A stretch of 64,000 nucleotides of DNA from the NCBI GenBank assembly GCA_037189525.1, contig JBBCJC010000003.1:288001-352000 (forward strand), in the 5' to 3' direction. Of this stretch, positions 3,112 to 13,090 are shown in pieces; position 1 is the first letter of the stretch; each line of letters begins with the position of its first letter. The notes under the pieces are model-generated. The model was given only the letters and a program-made list of their open reading frames with translations. It did no database searches and was not told where the DNA came from. A program made the translations under genes and the position numbers. Source of the DNA: Gemmatimonadales bacterium. GTDB taxonomy: Bacteria; Gemmatimonadota; Gemmatimonadetes; Gemmatimonadales; GWC2-71-9.

Positions 3112-4140
3112 CTATTCGCGAACGTCGATGGCGCGCGCCATGGCGTTGAGCGAATCGGCCGGGAAGTTGGCGATGACGCTCAGGATCCGGAGCCGCCGCG
3201 GGGTTCCGGCGCCGCTGCTGACGTAATCGGGCGGCGTCAGCGCGGGGGTGCTGGCGCGAACCTGGCCCGGCGTCCGCGCGGCGTAGCGCTCGAGCAGCTG
3301 CTCGACCCGTTCGATCGGGCCCTCGACCGTGCGGATCAACCGGCCGGACGGATGCTGCTGGACGACGACTACGATCGGGCGCTCTTCGCCGCCGATCTGC
3401 TGCAGTTGGATATCCAGAATCGGGAGTCCGCTGATACGGGGCATGTTGCCGCCGGTCTCCGCCCGCGCCTGCTGCCAGTCGACCGACTGCCAGAGGCCTT
3501 CAAACCCGACGCTCTCTTCATCCGGGACCACCGCACTGACTTGGACCACCGGGGTGGCGGCCTGGGGCCGGATCGGGGCGGTGCGCAACGTCCGCGCCTC
3601 CTCACGAACCAGGGGGATCCGATCACCGGTGGGCTCGACGGCCGACGAGTTGTCGACCACGACCGATCCGGTCGAGTCATCGGCCACCAGGGCGACGGGA
3701 CCCGCCGCAACCAGCGTCCGACCCACCGTTTCAGCCGAAGGCTCCGCAACTGCGACCGTCGCAGGAGCAGCTGAGCCGGCCGGTCCGCCGCCCTGCATCC
3801 ACCAGCCCAACCCGACCGCGCCGACCAGGCCGGCCGCGATCAGCCCGACCCGACGCACCCGGCCGATCAGCGCCCGGCGGCGGGCCTGATGCTTCGCGAC
3901 GATCCGCTCATACGAAGGAATCGGGGTGACCCGACGCGGGGCCGTATCCGCCAGGAGGGCGGTGATCCGGTCCCGAACTGCCGCAACGTCATCACGCAGG
4001 TGCCGGCACTGCCGGCACTCCGCCAGATGACATTCGATTTCGACGCACTGCGAACGGCTCAGCGCCTGATCCAGATAGGCGTGGAGCTCGTCCTCAGGAA
4101 TGTGCCGCGGCGCGCCGTCGATCGTGATCCATCCCGTCAT
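3112..4140 (-). CDS. Zinc-finger (zf-HC2) membrane anti-sigma factor
   Basis: ATG at 4140 (MTGWITID); ELHAYLD..HLAECRQC HxxxCxxC motif, one TM helix (VGLIAAGLVGAVGLGWW), extracytoplasmic C-terminus; directly downstream of an ECF sigma. Confidence 0.85.
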   Translation of the reverse strand: MTGWITIDGAPRHIPEDELHAYLDQALSRSQCVEIECHLAECRQCRHLRDDVAAVRDRITALLADTAPRRVTPIPSYERIVAKHQARRRALIGRVRRVGLIAAGLVGAVGLGWWMQGGGPAGSAAPATVAVAEPSAETVGRTLVAAGPVALVADDSTGSVVVDNSSAVEPTGDRIPLVREEARTLRTAPIRPQAATPVVQVSAVVPDEESVGFEGLWQSVDWQQARAETGGNMPRISGLPILDIQLQQIGGEERPIVVVVQQHPSGRLIRTVEGPIERVEQLLERYAARTPGQVRASTPALTPPDYVSSGAGTPRRLRILSVIANFPADSLNAMARAIDVRE

Positions 4141-4612
4141 ATGCGTCCAGGAGTCGTTTGCGGGCTCTTGCCAACGTGGTGCCGATTGCACCGACGGCGA
4201 GCCCGGTTTGCTCTGCAATCTCCGGATAGCTGAGTCCCGCGTCCCACAGCAACAGGACCTCCCGGTCCCGCTCCGACAACGTGGCCAGGGCCTCGTTGAC
4301 CAGCGCCTTCCGTTCGTCGTACTCGACCGCCTCATCCGCCGTCCGCTCCGGCGTGGACATCGGCAGGGGGTCGTTGGTGAGCAGCATCAGATGCTTCTTC
4401 CGACGGACCGCCGCGCGCGCTTCGTCACGAGCCAGATTGGCGGCAACGGCAAAGACCCACGCCCTCGGCTTCTCCGGCTGATGCGACATCGCGCGGATGA
4501 AGACTTCCTGGGCAAGATCTTCCGCGCGGTCCGCATCCCAGACCTTCCGGTACAGGAAACGAACAACGGCGGTGTACGTCGATTTATAGAGGCGCTCCAG
4601 ATCGTCGGTCAT
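4094..4612 (-). CDS. ECF (sigma-70 group 4) RNA polymerase sigma factor
   Basis: ATG 4612 with GGAGAAGG RBS; AEDLAQEVF region 2, LSERDREVLLL..GLSYPEIAE region 4. Confidence 0.92.
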   Translation of the reverse strand: MTDDLERLYKSTYTAVVRFLYRKVWDADRAEDLAQEVFIRAMSHQPEKPRAWVFAVAANLARDEARAAVRRKKHLMLLTNDPLPMSTPERTADEAVEYDERKALVNEALATLSERDREVLLLWDAGLSYPEIAEQTGLAVGAIGTTLARARKRLLDAYDGMDHDRRRAAAHS

Positions 4613-4864
4613 AGGACCTTCTCCTGTGCGTGTCTCCGACAAGGTAATGCGATTACGTGAATGGTAGACGCCTGCCCGGCGCGTCCTTGCACACCAACAC
4701 CTAAACTGTTGTACCAGCGCGGTTTACGGTACGTCGCTTCGTTCGAGCTTTACATGAAGTCGCAAGACCTGAAACTGATATCAACTTGCGACGTAATTGC
4801 CTGGTGCAAAAGTATTTATGTGAAGCAATGTAATGTAATTTCTAGAAAGAATGTGTAAATGGTT

Positions 4865-5617
4865 CTAGAAAGCACACCCGGGATGCCGCGCCTCCTGGCC
4901 CTTGGGCCACTTGAAGCACAGGCCAGGCTTGGCGGGCCGGCCGTCCGGGCGGGTCCGACCGTGCAGGGTACAGAGAACCCCGCCCTCCTCGAGATATCCA
5001 CATGCCGAAATCATCTCGACCCCGAGCGAGTCGGGCGTCTCCCGGCTGACCTTACAGAGATATGGGCTCTTCCGGGTCCGCACCAGGTCTTCCAGATGCT
5101 GGTTCCGTTCGGTGCAGAGGATCTCGACCTGGAGGTCCCGACAGCAGGCGGCGCCTACGGTATGGTCGGAGGTCTGGCACCGGGCGGTCAGGCAAGGCGT
5201 TTTGGGTACGCTCAGGACCGCTAGCTGCCGCTTGGGCGGTGGCGGACCCTTCAGCGTCAGCGGCGTCGGCTGTCCGTTCTGAATGACGATGAAACGGTCG
5301 TTGCCCAACTGCCGAGGCTGTTTGACCTGGCGCGGTTGGGGCAGGGCTGCCCGATATCGGTGGGCGCCGCAGCGAATCTGGCCGTTGTCGATCTTCGCAT
5401 ACCGGCACGGGACATCCAACCGGACCCGAGCCCGCAGTTCGGTGCCGAACCGGAACAGCGACCCGAACTTGATCCGTTGGGTATGACCGTAGAGCCAGGT
5501 GGCCTCGGGGTCCATGGTACGAGCGGTCCGGGGGTTGTCGTCATCCGCAACCCGAAGTGTGACCGACAAGCCGAGGCAGTGGGCGCCGGCACGTTTACAT
5601 TGAGGGACGAGTGGCAT
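4865..5617 (-). CDS. Cysteine-rich protein with two YkgJ/CxxCxxCC-like (putative Zn/Fe-S) repeats
   Basis: Probable ATG 5617 (MPLVPQCKRAGAHC); first unit C..GAHC...PCRY...C, second unit C...C...ACC...CGYL...CTLH...KP.LC..WP. Confidence 0.6.
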   Translation of the reverse strand: MPLVPQCKRAGAHCLGLSVTLRVADDDNPRTARTMDPEATWLYGHTQRIKFGSLFRFGTELRARVRLDVPCRYAKIDNGQIRCGAHRYRAALPQPRQVKQPRQLGNDRFIVIQNGQPTPLTLKGPPPPKRQLAVLSVPKTPCLTARCQTSDHTVGAACCRDLQVEILCTERNQHLEDLVRTRKSPYLCKVSRETPDSLGVEMISACGYLEEGGVLCTLHGRTRPDGRPAKPGLCFKWPKGQEARHPGCAF

Positions 5618-5662
5618 GGGGCGTAAACGTAGACACTGGTAAACCAGTGGCAAGCGCTTATA

Positions 5663-5682
5663 TTTGTGAAGATTTTCACAAA
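5663..5682. promoter_or_regulatory. Palindromic operator matching Rex (TTGTGAA-N4-TTCACAA) and CRP (TGTGA-N6-TCACA) consensus
   Basis: TTTGTGAAGATTTTCACAAA; overlaps a rightward -10-like TATATT (5659-5664) and fills the spacer of a leftward TTGTTT-N17-TATAAG promoter. Confidence 0.8.
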
Positions 5683-5763
5683 CAAACAACGGGCCGTTGT
5701 CGGGGCCGGCGCCGTTGAGCGATTCAACGAGCCCACGAGATGACTTCGGAAGGGGATCTGGAA

Positions 5764-6240
5764 ATGCGTACGATCGGGTGGTTGGTTGGTGCGTCGTTGT
5801 TACTGACGGCCTGTGGCGGTGGCGACAAGGCGCCTGCAGCTAATGCGGCCCCGGCGACGGATGCTCCGGCGACCCCTGCGCCGGTGGCAGGTGCGAACGG
5901 TACGACGCACAACGTGAACATGGTGCTCGAAGGCGCGGACTACAAGTTCGTTCCCGCCGAACTCACCATCAAGGCGGGCGATCGCGTTGTTTTCCACAAC
6001 GTGAGCGGCGGCCCGCACAACGTGCAGTTCTGGGGTGACAGCGTGCCGGCCGAGTCTCGCGCTGCGCTCGACGCCGCCATGCCGGGCGACAAGCTGGGCG
6101 AGCTCAATGGCCCGCTCATGACCGCGCCGAACGAGACCTACGAGATCTCCTTCGCGGGTTTGGTGGCGGGTGAGTACCGGTTTACCTGCACGCCGCACAT
6201 CGCCAACAACATGAACGGCAAGATCACCATCCAGCCGTAA
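5764..6240 (+). CDS. Plastocyanin/azurin-family type-1 blue copper lipoprotein
   Basis: Lipobox LLLTA-C; Ala/Pro linker; GPHNV His ligand and C-x2-H-x4-M (CTPHIANNM) copper site. Confidence 0.9.
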   Translation: MRTIGWLVGASLLLTACGGGDKAPAANAAPATDAPATPAPVAGANGTTHNVNMVLEGADYKFVPAELTIKAGDRVVFHNVSGGPHNVQFWGDSVPAESRAALDAAMPGDKLGELNGPLMTAPNETYEISFAGLVAGEYRFTCTPHIANNMNGKITIQP

Positions 6241-6267: not shown

Positions 6268-6296
6268 CAAAGGCCCCGCCGAACGCGGGGCCTTTG
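6268..6296 (+). terminator. Rho-independent terminator
   Basis: CAAAGGCCCCGC-cgaac-GCGGGGCCTTTG 12-bp stem just after the blue copper gene. Confidence 0.8.
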
Positions 6297-6308: not shown

Positions 6309-6422
6309 GGCTGCTCAGTCAGGTAGGCGATAGGTAAGTAGGCAAGTGGGCAAGTAGGTAAGTCGGTAGGCAGGTAGGCAGGTAGGCGAGCAGGCAGGCA
6401 CGCGTTCAGGTCGGCTGCTCAG
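6309..6422. repeat. Degenerate 4-bp-period purine-rich microsatellite flanked by a 10-bp direct repeat
   Basis: Run of GTAG/GTAA/GCAG/GCAA units (about 6319-6400); GGCTGCTCAG at 6309-6318 and 6413-6422. Confidence 0.7.
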
Positions 6423-6433
6423 GCCGCCTGTCG

Positions 6434-7291
6434 TTACGCTTGCCGAGCAAAGACCGTTCGGGTCAATCCGATGACGACCGCAGCAATCGCGAGGCCTGCC
6501 AGCGCATCGACCGCGTAGTGCATCTGACAGTAGACTACTCCTACCGTGAGCAGCACCGACGGGACGGCGGCCACGACGCCGAGTGCTCGGCTGCTCCGCC
6601 AGGTGGCGACAGTTGCGACCCAGGTGGCGGCAACATGGGAACTCGGGAAGGCCGCGCCGAATGAGCTGCCGCGCTCGAGCACGCCGTACACGGCTCGCGC
6701 GGCCCAGTTATCCAGGAACTGCGAGTCGGGCCTCGGGTACTCGTAGTAGGGGCCGGCCACCGGGGCCAGGATGAAGCAGACGTAGCAGAGGACGAACACC
6801 GCCATCAGCGAAAACAGCGTCCTCGACAGCTCGCCATCATCCCGCCGCTGGAGTGCAATCAGTACGGGGACTGGAACGATGAAATAGTACGAGAAGTACG
6901 CCGCGTGAAAGAGCGTGGACGGGACCCGTTCGTTCCATCGCTGCCACCAGATCCGACTCACTTCCTCACCGAACAGGCCCCGTTCCCAGCCGAGGACGAT
7001 CGCGTCGTAAGTTCGCGCGCTGCCGAATCCGCTCAGGAGGTCCAGGGCGCCATAGAGAGCCAGCAGCAGTACGATCGGGCCGAAGTTGCGGAGCCAGCGA
7101 CCCCGATGGCCCGGGAGGCGCTGAAACATGACGAGGAGCGCGAGGAGCAGGAGGTGCGCAGCGACGGCCCAGACCACCGCGGGGTGGCGGTCGAGTCGCC
7201 CGAGGCCGACGATGGTGACAAACGCGGCATAGCCGGCCAGCAGCCACTCGGCCGGTCGGACGGTTACAGCCACCCTTGCTGGCGATACCAT
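6434..7291 (-). CDS. PAP2-superfamily membrane phosphotransferase, Aur1/Ipt1 (inositol phosphorylceramide synthase)-like
   Basis: Multi-TM; PVAGP, AFPSSHV and HYAVD motifs; lacks the K-x6-RP and SR of classical PAP2 phosphatases; last gene of the spt operon. Confidence 0.75.
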   Translation of the reverse strand: MVSPARVAVTVRPAEWLLAGYAAFVTIVGLGRLDRHPAVVWAVAAHLLLLALLVMFQRLPGHRGRWLRNFGPIVLLLALYGALDLLSGFGSARTYDAIVLGWERGLFGEEVSRIWWQRWNERVPSTLFHAAYFSYYFIVPVPVLIALQRRDDGELSRTLFSLMAVFVLCYVCFILAPVAGPYYEYPRPDSQFLDNWAARAVYGVLERGSSFGAAFPSSHVAATWVATVATWRSSRALGVVAAVPSVLLTVGVVYCQMHYAVDALAGLAIAAVVIGLTRTVFARQA

Positions 7292-8232
7292 GCGGCTGTG
7301 GCGCGGGCGCCGGCTGCGAAGTCATGCCGGGCGGTCCATCCGGTGGCGGTCTCGAGGGGGGCGGGGTCCGCCAGCCAGGCCGGGGCAAAGAACTCCGCCG
7401 TCTTGTCGTAGGAGAGCACGGTCGCCCGACCCGCAAGGCGCGCAGCACGATCGGTTATGGCCAGCAGCCCTTTGCCGACCGGCTCGGGGATGCCGATGAC
7501 GCGCACCCGGCGGCCTACCGCCTCGCCGGCCAGACGGACCATCTCTCGCGTGGTCAGGATTTCCCGGTGGCAGGCATAGTAGACCTGCCCGATCGTCGCA
7601 GGGGTCAACGACGCCGCGATCAGCGCATCGACCAGGTCGGGGCCGTAGACCACCGACAGCTGCTGCTCGCCGCGACCGAACACCGGAGCGACACCGAGCG
7701 TGGCCGCTTTGAAGATCCGGAACATTTCGCGGTCGCCTGGTCCGTAGACGGCCGGCGGGCGGATGATGGTCCAGGGCAGGGGAGAACGGCGCACCAATTC
7801 TTCACCGGCCAGCTTGCTGCGGCCATAGCGGGTCACCGGAGCCGCCGGCTCTGTGCCGACCAAGCGTACGCCGGGCGAGGTAGGCCCTCCGGCCGCGAGC
7901 GACGATATCAGGATGAAACGCGGATTCCCGGCGTGCAGGGCGGCGTCGAGCATCACGCCGGTGCCTTCCCGGTTGACGGCCAGGAACTCTTCTTCGTTCC
8001 GTGCGGCAATCAGTCCGGCAACATGAAAGACGACGTCATGGTTGGCCATCGTGTCGGCCAGGGTCCGCGCCGATCGGATATCGCCCTGGACGAGGGTGGC
8101 GCCCAGGGCGCTCAGCGCGGTGGCGCGCGCCGGGGTGCGCACCAGGGCCGTGACGTCATCGCCGCGGGCCCGGAGTGCTGCAACGAGGTGGCCGCCGACG
8201 AAGCCGGTCGCCCCGGTGACGAACGCTTTCAC
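7264..8232 (-). CDS. NAD-dependent epimerase/dehydratase family; putative ceramide reductase (CerR-like)
   Basis: TGATGFVG Rossmann motif, YGRSK catalytic YxxxK, RPPAVYGPGD; position in the spt operon. Confidence 0.75.
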   Translation of the reverse strand: MKAFVTGATGFVGGHLVAALRARGDDVTALVRTPARATALSALGATLVQGDIRSARTLADTMANHDVVFHVAGLIAARNEEEFLAVNREGTGVMLDAALHAGNPRFILISSLAAGGPTSPGVRLVGTEPAAPVTRYGRSKLAGEELVRRSPLPWTIIRPPAVYGPGDREMFRIFKAATLGVAPVFGRGEQQLSVVYGPDLVDALIAASLTPATIGQVYYACHREILTTREMVRLAGEAVGRRVRVIGIPEPVGKGLLAITDRAARLAGRATVLSYDKTAEFFAPAWLADPAPLETATGWTARHDFAAGARATAAWYRQQGWL

Positions 8233-9365
8233 GCCGGTCGCTCGTAGATGGCGTACCGTTTGTATTGGGTAAAGCCCATTTTGACGAGTCCCGCGTTCAT
8301 GGCAGGATTGTCTTCGAGGACCCAGCCCGCCTCGCCCCAGGTGATCTGGCGCGCAGTCGAATGGGTCCAGATCCAGTGGTACAGCGCGGCATCGACCCCC
8401 TTGCCCCGATACTCGGGCAACACGCCGAGCAGGAGGATGCGCGCCCGGCGGAGGCGTCGAGCCTTGAGTGACCAGAGCAGATTCAGGGCGGCCGGGAACA
8501 TCCGGCCTTTGCGGTTGGTGCGGAGAACCTGATTGAAATCCGGGAGCGCCAGTCCGAATCCGATCGGCTCTCCATCCTTCTCGGCAAACGGCACCATCTC
8601 GGGAACGACGACCGGCCGGAACTGCGCTGCGAGATGATCGATCTCATGATCGGTCATCGGCACCGCGCCCCAGTTGTCTTCCCAGCAGCGGTTGTACAGC
8701 GCCTTGACCCGATCGACTTCGGCCTTGAAGTCAGCCAGGCGCAGCGAGCGGATGGTGACCCCATAGCGCTGCTTGGTGAGCTCGACCGCGCGGGTAATCC
8801 GCTCCGGGGCGGGAACCGCCTGGTCCTCGCGGCCGCCTTCGAACGCCACCAGCGTCTTGACCACCGTGAGGCCGGCCCGCTCGAGCAGCGCCGGGTAGTA
8901 CGGCGGATTGTGCGGCATCATGATCGTGTTGGGCCGGTCGAACCCAGAGATCAGCAGGCCGTATTCGTCGTTGACCGAGGGCGAGGCCGGTCCGCGCAGC
9001 ACGTTAAGTCCGCGCCCGGCGATCCACCGGCTCGCCTCTGCACACAGCGCCTCGGCCACCGCGACATCGTCGATCGATTCGAAAAAGCCGAAGAATCCGA
9101 CCTGGTCCCCGTGGGTTTCGTTATGCAGGCGGTTGTGGATGGCGCCGATCCGGCCCACCACGGCACCGTTCCGCTCCGCGAGGAAATAGGCGGCCTCGGC
9201 GTGTTCGAAGAAGGGATTCTTTTTCGGGGAGAGCAGCAGCTCGACGTCCCGACGCAACGGCGGGACCCATGACAGGTCCCGCGCGTGAAGCCGATAGGGA
9301 AGATCGATGAACCGGTTGAGGTCCGCCCGCGTCAGAACGGGGCGGACCGTTACGTCGGCACTCAG
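8229..9365 (-). CDS. GNAT-fold acyltransferase; putative bacterial ceramide synthase (bCerS-like)
   Basis: FIDLPYRL..WVPPL, NPFFEH, GRIGA, GFFGFFE, MMPHNPPYY, LGVLPEYRGKG, WVLEDN motifs; probable CTG start overlapping the spt stop. Confidence 0.8.
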   Translation of the reverse strand: MSADVTVRPVLTRADLNRFIDLPYRLHARDLSWVPPLRRDVELLLSPKKNPFFEHAEAAYFLAERNGAVVGRIGAIHNRLHNETHGDQVGFFGFFESIDDVAVAEALCAEASRWIAGRGLNVLRGPASPSVNDEYGLLISGFDRPNTIMMPHNPPYYPALLERAGLTVVKTLVAFEGGREDQAVPAPERITRAVELTKQRYGVTIRSLRLADFKAEVDRVKALYNRCWEDNWGAVPMTDHEIDHLAAQFRPVVVPEMVPFAEKDGEPIGFGLALPDFNQVLRTNRKGRMFPAALNLLWSLKARRLRRARILLLGVLPEYRGKGVDAALYHWIWTHSTARQITWGEAGWVLEDNPAMNAGLVKMGFTQYKRYAIYERPA

Positions 9366-10570
9366 ATGACGCCGAGCTCGCGGCCCAGCTTCCCGATCGT
9401 CTCGAGGCAGTAGTCGATCTGGTCCGGGGTGTGCGTGGCCATCAGGCTGGTGCGCAGCCGGCACTGGGACGGCGGCACGGCCGGCGGAACGACCGGGTTG
9501 GTGAAGATGCCGGCGTCGAAGACCTTCCGCCACATGATCAAGGTCCGGTCGAGCGGCCCGATCAGAATCGGAATGATCGGCGTCTCGGTCGGGCCGACTT
9601 CGAAGCCCAGGCTGCGGAAACCGTCGACCAGCCGCTTGGTGTTGGCCCACAGCTGCGCCCGGCGTTCGGGCTCCTGCTGGAGGACTTCCAACGCCGCGAG
9701 GACGCCGGCGGTGTTGGCGGGCGGCAGCGCTGCGGTGAAGATGAGCGGCCGGCTGTGGTGGCGGAGGTAGTTGATCACGGCCTTCGAACCCGCCACGAAT
9801 CCGCCGATCGACGCCAGCGACTTCGAGAACGTGCCCGCGATGATGTCGACCTCGTCGATCATGCCGAAGTGCGCGGCGGTGCCGTCACCGTTCGGGCCGA
9901 GTACGCCGATCGAGTGCGCATCGTCGATGGCCAGCGCCGCGCCGTACTTGCGGCAGACCTTGAGCAGCTCGGGGACGTTGGCGATGTCGCCTTCCATCGA
10001 GTAGACGCCGTCGACCACCACCATCCGGCCGCCGGTTTCCGGCGCGCGGGCCAGCTTGCGATCGAGGTTCTCGAGGTCGTCGTGGTTGAAGCGCTCGGTG
10101 GAGCCGTAGCTCATCTTGGCGCCGTCGACGATCGACGCGTGGTCGAGCTTGTCGAGGAAGACCGTGTCCGACTTGCCCACCAAGCCCGAGATCAGGCCGA
10201 GATTGGCGTTGTACCCGGTCGAGAAGACGATGCAGTCCTCTTTGCCCAGGAACTTGGCCAGTGAATGTTCGAGCTGCAGATGCAGATCGAGGGTGCCGTT
10301 CAGGAAGCGGCTACCGGTGCAACCGGAGCCATAGAGGTGCAACGCGCGCGTCGCAGCCTCCAGCACCTTGGGGTGGTGGGTGAGACCGAGATAGTTGTTC
10401 GAGCCCAGCATGATCCGCTTGAGCCCTTCGATCGTCACCACCGTATCTTCGGATTCCGAGATCGGCTTGAAGTACGGATAGAGCCCCTGCGCTTTGACTT
10501 CGTCCACCTGAGTGTAGCGCCGGCACTTGTCGAACAGCGCGATATCGGTGGTCAGCGTCGATGTCGTCAC
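9362..10570 (-). CDS. spt: Serine palmitoyltransferase (PLP-dependent alpha-oxoamine synthase)
   Basis: GTG 10570; GLYPYF, GSNNYLGL, GCTGSRFLNGTLDLH, DDAH, GTFSKSLASIGG (PLP Lys); resembles Bacteroidetes-type Spt; operon context. Confidence 0.8.
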   Translation of the reverse strand: MTTSTLTTDIALFDKCRRYTQVDEVKAQGLYPYFKPISESEDTVVTIEGLKRIMLGSNNYLGLTHHPKVLEAATRALHLYGSGCTGSRFLNGTLDLHLQLEHSLAKFLGKEDCIVFSTGYNANLGLISGLVGKSDTVFLDKLDHASIVDGAKMSYGSTERFNHDDLENLDRKLARAPETGGRMVVVDGVYSMEGDIANVPELLKVCRKYGAALAIDDAHSIGVLGPNGDGTAAHFGMIDEVDIIAGTFSKSLASIGGFVAGSKAVINYLRHHSRPLIFTAALPPANTAGVLAALEVLQQEPERRAQLWANTKRLVDGFRSLGFEVGPTETPIIPILIGPLDRTLIMWRKVFDAGIFTNPVVPPAVPPSQCRLRTSLMATHTPDQIDYCLETIGKLGRELGVI

Positions 10571-10780
10571 GAGGTAACCCCGCAAGGTAGAAGGGTCGTC
10601 GGCTGAAAGGTGCCGATCCCGTTGCACAGTAACGACTTAAGTTAATATCTGTGCCAGACTGCCACAAGGAGGACGTTTCGACCTGTGACTCCATGCACGG
10701 GACGGGATGCCGGGCGGGGTGGGCGGCCGATTTTCGTGTTATTGTTGTGGCGGGTCTACGAGCCAATCCGGGAGAATGGC

Positions 10781-13090
10781 ATGCGCGTCACGGTCGCGGC
10801 GGCGATGGTGAGTTGGGCGTTGAGCGTCGCGGCTTCGGCCGCCGACGCCCAGGTGCGCCGAGCCGAGCCGGGGCGGTTCGAGGTCGAGGGGATGGAATGG
10901 CGCCCGAACACGGCGTGGCGGCCCCGGGCGGACCTGGTCCGATTCAACCGCTGGGCCGCAATCCGGCGGGGCGACATCATCTCCCTCAATCAGCGCCGTT
11001 CGATGCTGGCCCTGGCGCCCGGGGGCGGTGCGGCGTCGCTGTCGGTAACCGGGACTTTTTATGTCCCCGTTATCCCGCTGTCGTTCACCGATGTGCCGAT
11101 GGCGTTCCCCACGGCGCAATTCCAGCAGGTGTTGTTCGGCCCCACCGCGCCGGCGGGCGCCGCTTACACGCTCAAGACGTACTACGAGCAGCTGTCGGGC
11201 AACCGGATTCAGATGGAGGGGCAGGTCTTCGGCGTCGCCGCGATGGATTCGACGGCTGCGTACTATCAGGACGACTGCAACGGCATCGGTGTGATCCGGC
11301 AGTGCAGCGAAGGGGGGCTGCGACTCGGGCGGATGCTGCTGGCTGCGCTCGACTCGGTTTCCAACGGTCCCAATGCCGCCGAGGTCTGGTCGGCGTTCGA
11401 CAACGACGGTCCTGACGGCATTCCGAACTCCGGGGATGACGATGGCGTGGTCGACTTCGTCACCTTCATCCAGCCCGTCAAGGACGGCGCCTGCCAGCCG
11501 AGTCCGGGGATCTGGGCGCATCGCTTCGAGATCGCGGGATGGAACAACGGATCGCCCTACGTCACCAAGACACCGCGCCGTAACCGGCCGGGCGAGTTCA
11601 TCACCGTCAACAATTACACGATGCAGAGCCAGGTCGGCGGGAGCACCGGTTGTGTCGACGGTGTCATCATGCCGGTCGGAACCGTGGCGCACGAAACCGG
11701 CCATGCCTTCGGTCTGCCCGATCTCTACGATACCGATCAGCAGCGCACGGAAGGGGTCGGTGAATGGAGCCTGATGGGGAGCGGCAACTACAGTCAGGCC
11801 TACAGCCCCGCCAGCTACGACGCCTGGTCGCTCAATGAACTGGGTTGGATCACGGTCGACACGCTTGGTGCGGGTCGCACCATCACCACGCGTGCCCGGC
11901 AGGTGTCCGATACCGTATTCCTGGGCCGGTACGCCGGCAATCAGAGCGAGTTTCTGCTGATCGAAAACCGGCAGGCGGTGCATTCGGACACGGCGATGTT
12001 CAATCCGACGCTGCCGGAGGAAACCAACACGGGGCAGCCCTGCCGGCAGCGGTGTCCCAAGTTGCCCGGGCTTCTGCTCTGGCATATCGATGTCGAGCAG
12101 GTCGACACATGGCGACCGATCAATCGCGTCAATTCCGGCACGACCCGTCCGCACGGCGTGGCGCTGGTCCAGGCGGATGGACTCAATAACCTCCGAGTCC
12201 AAAGCAGCAACCGAAACCGCGGTGATCGCGGCGACTCCTATCCGGGGCGGACGGGAAACACACGTTGGTCGCTCACCTCGTTGCCGTCGGCCCGGTCCAA
12301 CGCCGGGGCCTATACCGGCTTCATTCTCGATCGGATCGAACAACTCGACGGCGGCGTGATGCGGTTTCGGTATCTGCCGCGCGAGCCGACGGTCGTGGTG
12401 GCGTCGGTGGCGGGAATCCGGGTCAACGTGAACGGCCGGAGCTGGGCGCGCTACGAAGAGGCCATCGCCCCCGGCGAACAGTTCGTGATCGAGGCCGATT
12501 CGCTGCAGACCAATCCCGACGGCCGGACCCGGGCTCGCTTCCTGGCCTGGACCATCGGGGGGCCGCGCAGTCAGACGGTCATGAGCAGCGCCAAGCCCGA
12601 TACCATCATCGCGACGTTTGCTGCGGAGCATCGGCTGATGGTCCTGGTGCAGGGCGGGGGACAGGGTGCGGTCACGGTCGGCCCGTCCGGAAGCGCGGTA
12701 TTGCCGGGCGGTGATTTCCTGCCCGCCGGGACGCCCGTCACGGTGACGGCGCAACCGCAGCCCGGGTCGTTGTTCGTCGGCTGGCGTGGCGATACCGTGG
12801 CGACCAGCCAGACGATCACCTTGCCGATGGGGCGGCCGTACGATCTCGAAGCCTCGTTCGTCACGGAGGTCGCGGTTGGTGTGCAGGCGGCGACCTCCGA
12901 GATCCTCGGGACCACGTCGCTCTCGGCCGATCAGCGCACCTTCCTCGATTTGCTGGGAAATCGGAATGGCATCTACGACGTCGGCGACTTCCTCGCCTAC
13001 CTCCGCCATACCGGCCAACCGGTGCCCGCGGCCGCGCTGCATTTGCTGGGGACGGAACGGCGCAGTGCGGCGCCCGGGAGGAACCGATGA
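10781..13090 (+). CDS. Secreted M6-family (immune inhibitor A-like) zinc metalloprotease with C-terminal beta-repeat and dockerin/EF-hand-like tail
   Basis: Signal peptide; HETGHAFGLPDLYD zinc motif; DNDGPDG..DDDGVVD, WSLMGSG, LIENRQ, GLLLWHID; C-terminal VTAQP..FVGW.GD and DLLGNRNGIYDVGDFL. Confidence 0.88.
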   Translation: MRVTVAAAMVSWALSVAASAADAQVRRAEPGRFEVEGMEWRPNTAWRPRADLVRFNRWAAIRRGDIISLNQRRSMLALAPGGGAASLSVTGTFYVPVIPLSFTDVPMAFPTAQFQQVLFGPTAPAGAAYTLKTYYEQLSGNRIQMEGQVFGVAAMDSTAAYYQDDCNGIGVIRQCSEGGLRLGRMLLAALDSVSNGPNAAEVWSAFDNDGPDGIPNSGDDDGVVDFVTFIQPVKDGACQPSPGIWAHRFEIAGWNNGSPYVTKTPRRNRPGEFITVNNYTMQSQVGGSTGCVDGVIMPVGTVAHETGHAFGLPDLYDTDQQRTEGVGEWSLMGSGNYSQAYSPASYDAWSLNELGWITVDTLGAGRTITTRARQVSDTVFLGRYAGNQSEFLLIENRQAVHSDTAMFNPTLPEETNTGQPCRQRCPKLPGLLLWHIDVEQVDTWRPINRVNSGTTRPHGVALVQADGLNNLRVQSSNRNRGDRGDSYPGRTGNTRWSLTSLPSARSNAGAYTGFILDRIEQLDGGVMRFRYLPREPTVVVASVAGIRVNVNGRSWARYEEAIAPGEQFVIEADSLQTNPDGRTRARFLAWTIGGPRSQTVMSSAKPDTIIATFAAEHRLMVLVQGGGQGAVTVGPSGSAVLPGGDFLPAGTPVTVTAQPQPGSLFVGWRGDTVATSQTITLPMGRPYDLEASFVTEVAVGVQAATSEILGTTSLSADQRTFLDLLGNRNGIYDVGDFLAYLRHTGQPVPAAALHLLGTERRSAAPGRNR

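Follow-up and report, generated by a model that had tools for sequence, protein, structure and literature searches.

Which lipid is made by a compact group of four genes in a Gemmatimonadales bacterium, and what is the role of the fourth of them? The genes were found in a window of 64,000 nucleotides (GenBank assembly GCA_037189525.1, contig JBBCJC010000003.1, positions 288,001 to 352,000), which belongs to a genome 98% complete, denoted here as G000, and they form four overlapping open reading frames (ORFs) on the minus strand: spt, cerS, cerR and one referred to here as gene 4. The initial annotation, made from the letters alone, took them for a complete ceramide operon encoding a serine palmitoyltransferase (SPT), a ceramide synthase, a ceramide reductase and an Aur1-like transferase in a probable member of the Gemmatimonadota, an origin that agrees with the label "Gemmatimonadales bacterium" carried by gene 4 homologues at 80-82% identity. 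The first three genes represent a known pathway, here in a new lineage and in an order known elsewhere, and the value of the operon lies in the family of the fourth enzyme, a candidate head-group transferase. Taken together, the four genes probably constitute a single phosphosphingolipid operon, that is, a ceramide core plus a transferase.

The product of the first gene is likely a bacterial SPT, as predicted from several comparisons. Its best matches in the PDB were the SPTs 8guh and 3a2b (434.7 bits), against about 308 bits for Sphingomonas-type enzymes and at most 291 for BioF and Kbl, and its identity amounts to 51% to Parabacteroides Spt, 46-51% across Bacteroides and Parabacteroides and 42-43% to Caulobacter Spt. 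The annotation had named in advance a phylogeny of this alpha-oxoamine synthase (AOS) against Spt, BioF, Kbl and HemA. In a tree of 34 proteins (the window protein, 17 rows of the phylum taken from fetched loci, and reference proteins of E. coli K-12 and C. vibrioides and of plasmid records), the window protein lies in a Gemmatimonadota clade of its own and groups with Caulobacter Spt, which is a long branch, and with two Bacteroidota proteins that pass the cut-off of the NCBIfam model NF047600 (support 95/90); BioF, Kbl and HemA fall outside. What counts against the assignment is that the protein stays under the cut-offs of all three NCBIfam Spt models, its best model being NF047600 (SerpalmtaseCFB) with 527.5 bits where 640 are required, followed by 419.2/500 and 352.6/670. 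These models are lineage-specific, and their scores for the window protein rank above those of the BioF and Kbl models, whose cut-offs are passed by two further AOS proteins encoded by separate genes of G000. In addition, an uncharacterised Priestia AOS with neither cerS nor cerR next to it has a similar score and a place in the Spt clade, so that membership of this clade is no proof of serine use. The three motifs adduced at the outset as Spt-type are all present, namely GLYPYF (position 29), GCTGSRFLNGT (83) and GTFSKS (246), and the SPTs of Sphingobacterium and Bacteroidota (8guh, 3a2b) have in common with the window protein G.YPYF, GSRFLNGT and GTFSKS. However, GTFSKS had to be rejected as an Spt marker, because the BioF of a bioA-bioF-bioD operon has it too.

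The family calls made for the remaining proteins (GNAT, epimerase and PAP2) were confirmed by Pfam, which matched the four products to Aminotran_1_2, Acetyltransf_1, Epimerase and PAP2_3. For a closer comparison, the locus of C. vibrioides DSM 9893 was located by the published spt primer, and its bcerS and cerR were delimited by exactly matching published primers. The window GNAT protein is 37% identical to C. vibrioides bCerS over 381 residues (E 4e-70), and each is the sole match of the other in both genomes and in both directions. Between the short-chain dehydrogenase/reductase (SDR) and CerR, identity is 35% over 323 residues (E 4e-35), and the two are reciprocal best matches, with E 1e-34 versus 4e-18 for the second-best SDR of C. 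vibrioides, while the other proteins of the 20-kb Caulobacter locus found only distant matches (24-30%) in G000. By these sequence criteria, the first three genes are orthologues of Caulobacter Spt, bCerS and CerR, as the annotation had anticipated, and of the outcomes that it gave as refuting its reading, those that sequence can reveal did not occur. The cerR product carries TGATGFVG at residue 6 and YGRSK at residue 136, corresponding to NAD(P)H-binding and YxxxK motifs; its Rossmann motif begins too early for a signal peptide, and that of Caulobacter CerR, reported to be periplasmic, starts at residue 12. A PDB sequence search with the window GNAT protein gave no significant match, and the ESM Atlas offered no cluster names more specific than GNAT and PAP2.

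Although the three full-length orthologues are shared with the Caulobacter crescentus/vibrioides pathway (CCNA_01220, CCNA_01212, CCNA_01222; PMC11087976, PMC11324152), the two systems differ in several respects. Caulobacter needs a dedicated acyl carrier protein (ACP) and an acyl-ACP synthetase, it does not have cerS directly after spt, and C. vibrioides has no gene 4 homologue, its head group being made via CpgABC. No gene for a dedicated ACP, an acyl-ACP synthetase, a transporter or a flippase was found in the Gemmatimonadales operon, and the word "complete" used for it at first thus holds for the four genes but not for these accessory functions. In Bacteroidota, unlike here, spt is not adjacent to cerS.

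A synteny survey across the Gemmatimonadota, also suggested by the annotation, covered 151 genomes at least 85% complete, in which spt was called at E 1e-100 and among which related genomes are not independent. The spt gene was present in 88 of them, and in all 88 it is directly followed by cerS. In turn, cerS is immediately followed by cerR in 82 genomes, three have cerR ahead of spt, G084 has it linked, and contig ends break the linkage in G061 and G145; 71 of the 88 have gene 4 downstream at a distance of at most 1.4 kb. In these figures two frameshift-split matches (cerS in G132 and gene 4 in G125) were counted as present. Since the gene order is kept across the phylum, the operon is not a chance arrangement. 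Besides G000, spt plus cerS occurred in 71 of 72 genomes of its own family, and in 4 of 31 of the order's other large family. Literature searches on Gemmatimonadota and sphingolipids, which covered listings, surfaced no paper on sphingolipids in the phylum. A Black Sea survey predicted Spt-like genes in 38 phyla (PMC11334938); the accessible portion of its text names no Gemmatimonadota, which may be included in the list given in its figure or supplement. The operon leads one to expect sphingolipids in a phylum that is common but barely cultured, and the spt-cerS adjacency contradicts the generalisation, found in an excerpt of PMC11324152, that cerS is always in another operon than spt.

The order spt-cerS-cerR was also observed on Rubrobacter and Streptomyces plasmids, and the compact core is therefore not special in itself. 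On those plasmids the slot after the core is taken by a gene for an LTA-synthase-family protein (L083, Rubrobacter) or for a condensation-domain protein (L091, Streptomyces), and elsewhere by a GT4 glycosyltransferase with an LPG-synthase-TM protein (L050, in G095). The same enzyme set is carried by a cultured actinomycete, Nonomuraea gerenzanensis (NZ_LT559118.1, 5687.7-5694.6 kb; L082), where spt is read in two frames and is accompanied by an ACP gene, cerS, cerR, a gene 4 homologue and an MMPL transporter gene. A second type of cluster, found in G075 (C9:328000-346000; L102), comprises a cerR-like SDR, a 1647-residue protein in which acyl-AMP ligase, acyl-CoA dehydrogenase, ACP and oxoamine synthase are fused, plus a gene 4 homologue, cerS and an MBOAT protein. 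Finally, several genomes (loci L108, L113 and L114) contain, away from spt, a paralogous SDR-PAP2-SDR cassette whose first SDR is cerR-like (33-36%).

What, then, does gene 4 encode? Phosphatases of the PAP2 superfamily, to which its product belongs (PAP2_3, 76.8 bits), are characterized by the motifs Kx6RP (C1) and SRx5Hx3D (C3). In the gene 4 family, PVAGPYY and VYCQMHYAVD stand in place of the phosphatase RP and SR in all 119 aligned members (118 of the 120 homologue matches plus the window protein), while a canonical PAP2 phosphatase encoded elsewhere in G000 does show both motifs. In contrast to those residues, the triad H213, H252 and D256, in the C2 and HxxxD C3 motifs, is invariant in the alignment, and its spacing (39 residues between the histidines, the aspartate at +4, with S211 ahead) is that of H255, H294, D298 and S253 in Saccharomyces cerevisiae Aur1, the inositol-phosphoceramide (IPC) synthase, in which the corresponding triad is essential according to an excerpt of PMC13133130. 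The predicted model of the protein (pLDDT 94.6) pointed in the same direction. In Foldseek, the yeast IPC synthase structures 9vj4 and 9ivc were the only matches under E 0.001 (8e-5 and 2e-4), and the comparison with 9ivc (VIA) gave Z 19.0 and rmsd 4.2 with 262 of 279 residues aligned (TM 0.60-0.63), a near-whole match. LpxE and PgpB came behind Aur1, with Z 16.1 and 15.0 over 162-167 aligned residues, and they lack the N-terminal helices before the PAP2 core that the match to Aur1 covers. The fold match and the triad bear out the description of the fourth protein as Aur1-like, and the protein is a rather likely candidate for a head-group transferase acting on ceramide. The family is wide, with 1558 members at E 1e-10 in a profile search of 1.84 billion representatives; a plasmid search with gene 4 gave no match and the viral contigs contained no relative.

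A clue to the possible product came from the Bacteroidota. In Prevotella F0039 and in B. finegoldii, a gene of the gene 4 family is located directly after a cerR-like SDR gene (in B. finegoldii, PAP2 WP_237923849.1 after SDR WP_022274854.1), and in G000 these SDR and PAP2 genes match best, reciprocally, the window cerR and gene 4. The cerR-linked PAP2 proteins share with gene 4 the motifs PV[AV]GP..Y, AAFPSSHV and Y.Q.HY.ID and score 87-100 bits with its profile; on the other hand, they are only 27% identical to it and do not lie next to spt-cerS within the flanks retrieved. The literature consulted gave no published function for them. A different bacterial Aur1-like protein, BT_1522 of B. thetaiotaomicron, acts on dihydroceramide: in the accessible parts of two reports (PMC9246714, PMC8791184) it is described as a phosphatidylinositol (PI)-dihydroceramide synthase responsible for nearly all IPC, whose loss removes PI-dihydroceramide and leaves phosphatidylethanolamine (PE)-dihydroceramide, and a BLAST search for a ceramide-phosphoethanolamine synthase is said to have found none as of 2022. 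BT_1522 had no BLAST match in another strain of B. finegoldii (E 0.65; PMC9246714, Supplementary Table 5), a species in which a gene 4 homologue exists, and for this reason the gene 4 family is probably not that of BT_1522. Gene location sets them apart as well, BT_1522 lying in an inositol cluster and gene 4 and its Bacteroidota homologues after cerR, although the two were likened through published data only. The ino1 loci of B. finegoldii, Runella and P. nigrescens contained no BT_1522-type gene.

Because the loss of BT_1522 spares PE-dihydroceramide and no synthase for this lipid had been found, the cerR-linked gene becomes a candidate for the PE-ceramide synthase. We tentatively propose that gene 4 might be the ceramide-phosphoethanolamine synthase missing in bacteria, an enzyme of the Aur1 fold, distinct from BT_1522, whose gene has stayed beside cerR in lineages as far apart as Gemmatimonadota and the gut genera Bacteroides and Prevotella; this reading, drawn from sequence, is possible rather than probable. 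If it were true, the gene adjacent to cerR in Bacteroides would make the main sphingolipid there, and the Gemmatimonadales would contribute phosphosphingolipids to soils and waters on a large scale that has gone unrecognised. The cerR-PAP2 pair is present in genetically tractable Bacteroides, where, according to the 2022 papers, the PE-ceramide synthase had yet to be identified; it may have been named since, as no literature search aimed at it was made.

The choice of PE as donor is based on the BT_1522 data, on the presence of pssA-psd in G000, on PE being a major lipid of cultured Gemmatimonadota in the descriptions available in part, and on G027, a genome in which gene 4 is linked and psd is present while neither ino1 nor phosphatidylinositol-phosphate (PIP) synthase gave a match. 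The Prevotella record (1.77 Mb, part of a genome) likewise has psd and no ino1. It might instead be that gene 4 is an IPC synthase which, fed by a separate PIP synthase-Ino1 pair, yields PI-dihydroceramide in the manner of yeast and B. thetaiotaomicron, a variant of the phosphosphingolipid reading that we regard as only slightly less likely than the PE version; phosphatidylglycerol (PG) or a mixed donor seems improbable. In G000, a PIP synthase gene is located directly before ino1, some 80 kb from the operon (C3:377210-379272; L078:7211-9273), its product giving PDB matches at best E 5e-26 and 159.9 bits with NF045883, whose cut-off is 170. PIP synthase was found in 137 and ino1 in 142 of the 151 genomes, usually adjacent, a spread that predicts PI or PIP across the Gemmatimonadota; two thin-layer chromatography (TLC) descriptions of cultured members, as far as their accessible parts go, list neither lipid. 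The IPC alternative draws on the best fold matches of gene 4, since Aur1, the nearest solved fold, is strictly PI-specific in the excerpt available, and on ino1 being present in 80 of the 81 genomes where gene 4 has a homologue, although ino1 is so frequent in the phylum that this co-occurrence says little. Individual genomes pull both ways. G073 has a linked gene 4, ino1 and PIP synthase with no psd match (96% complete, 90 contigs), G041, of the same family as G000, lost gene 4, ino1 and PIP synthase together while keeping psd and the core, and G095 is also devoid of the three genes, whereas G027 runs counter to the need for inositol. The surroundings of 20 gene 4 copies that are unlinked or paralogous contained neither ino1 nor PIP synthase nor any other hint of the donor, G000 gave no match for a PgpA-type PIP phosphatase, and the Bacteroidota homologue is linked to cerR and not to ino1, with BT_1522 as the source of almost all IPC formed by B. 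thetaiotaomicron; in contrast, B. finegoldii has an alternative inositol cluster, for which an excerpt describes the IPC synthase as unproven. Aur1 moreover needs Kei1, and its donor specificity is not transferable to gene 4.

Several observations weigh against the phosphosphingolipid reading as a whole. Sequence and profile searches of the PDB with gene 4 reached no Aur1, the two proteins are 16-19% identical and similarity of fold alone shows no function, 17 of the 88 spt-bearing genomes have no linked gene 4 (nine without a homologue and eight with one elsewhere, some at contig breaks), and the TLC descriptions of cultured Gemmatimonadota, in their accessible parts, list no sphingolipid, in strains that may or may not carry the operon. 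Alternatively, the core might make dihydroceramide next to a gene 4 product acting as a lipid phosphatase or a phospholipase C-like enzyme, recycling ceramide-phosphate, PIP or phosphatidylglycerol phosphate (PGP). The same triad serves phosphatases, the only profile matches in the PDB were weak ones to LpxE and PgpB, PgpA is missing from the G000 matches, and the homologues bear the automatic name "phosphatase PAP2 family protein". We nevertheless consider such an activity unlikely, given the replacement of the RP and SR residues throughout the family, the N-terminal helices matched in Aur1, the canonical PAP2 phosphatase that G000 has elsewhere and the lack of a ceramide kinase gene beside the operon. 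A doubt of another kind concerns the first step, as the operon could make a sphingolipid-like amide from alanine or glycine (1-deoxy bases) or from cysteate (sulfonolipids) instead of an ordinary ceramide. The scores of Spt under the curated cut-offs and the Priestia enzyme leave room for this, and Spt can use alanine according to part of PMC11334938; however, cysteate-C-fatty acyltransferase 28eh scored 244 bits versus 435 for SPT, and a 1-deoxy base would offer no C1 hydroxyl to gene 4, which is still linked in 71 of the 88 genomes, so that we hold this possibility to be quite improbable.

Under the preferred phosphosphingolipid reading, dihydroceramide would very probably be made, as predicted from the sequences, in three steps. 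Spt would condense serine with acyl-CoA to 3-ketosphinganine, bCerS would attach a fatty acid through an amide bond, and CerR would reduce the 3-keto group; this order is taken from Caulobacter, where it is disputed (PMC11087976, in part). Acyl-CoA is suggested as the donor because Spt is of the Bacteroidota type, which uses acyl-CoA according to an excerpt of PMC11324152, and because the operon has no ACP. Gene 4 would then transfer a phospho-head group from a glycerophospholipid to ceramide, most likely phosphoethanolamine from PE. By analogy with Aur1, the reaction would follow a ping-pong mechanism with a phosphohistidine at H252 and release of diacylglycerol, and it would take place on the periplasmic face, the counterpart of Aur1's luminal site. 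The ceramide chains are likely iso-branched, by extension from cultured relatives, since iso-C15:0 is dominant in these in the partial descriptions available. As lpxC is present in G000, the sphingolipid would accompany lipopolysaccharide, and the idea that it replaces the latter was rejected.

The coordinates of the operon and of the adjacent hairpin are collected in Table 1.

Table 1. Features of the operon and its downstream boundary (positions in the window).
Feature	Position	Strand	Description
spt	9362..10570	-	serine palmitoyltransferase, Bacteroidota-like, predicted; 402 aa; GTG start
cerS	8229..9365	-	bacterial ceramide synthase, GNAT fold, predicted; 378 aa; probable CTG start overlapping spt stop
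cerR	7264..8232	-	ceramide reductase, extended SDR, predicted; 322 aa; GTG start
gene 4	6434..7273	-	Aur1-fold lipid phosphotransferase candidate, membrane protein; 279 aa; GTG start
hairpin	6268..6296		strong hairpin, likely shared terminator, between operon and convergent cupredoxin gene

These coordinates confirm the coupled genes with overlapping stop/start junctions that had been described at the outset. The spt stop and the cerS start share CTGA, the cerS stop and the cerR start share GTGA, and cerR and gene 4 overlap by 10 nucleotides, gene 4 having an in-frame ATG at 7291 as an alternative start. The overlap of spt and cerS stands only with CTG as the start of cerS, which is probable because the homology begins exactly there and the junction is conserved: CTGA or TTGA is found in frame at this junction in 38 of 39 spt-bearing loci of the own family and family f3 (23 CTGA and 15 TTGA). 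The hairpin has z scores of -5.2 and -5.3 on the two strands, and none of 200 shuffles was as stable, although it is absent from the list of a consensus terminator scan; a promoter scan of the locus found no promoter. Two wastewater metatranscriptome contig sets, from one study, contain only parts of spt at low depth, which shows neither co-transcription nor habitat.

Between the operon stop and the hairpin there is a degenerate tandem repeat (6323-6400) of about ten GTAGGCAA-like copies with 69% matches. Beyond the hairpin, the region 3112-6240 contains the convergent cupredoxin gene (5740-6240, plus strand), an ORF for a Cys-rich protein of 274 residues without a Pfam match (4865-5689, minus strand), an ORF judged by eye to be ECF-sigma-like (4094-4642) and a zf-HC2 anti-sigma-like ORF. 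Of 60 related loci, 13 to 22 have similar genes beside the operon. Upstream, a divergent gene (10685-13090) encodes an M6 metallopeptidase of the immune inhibitor A type with an InlB-B-like repeat, and M6-like ORFs, in an ORF cluster that also includes antisense ORFs, are located upstream of spt in many of the family's loci.

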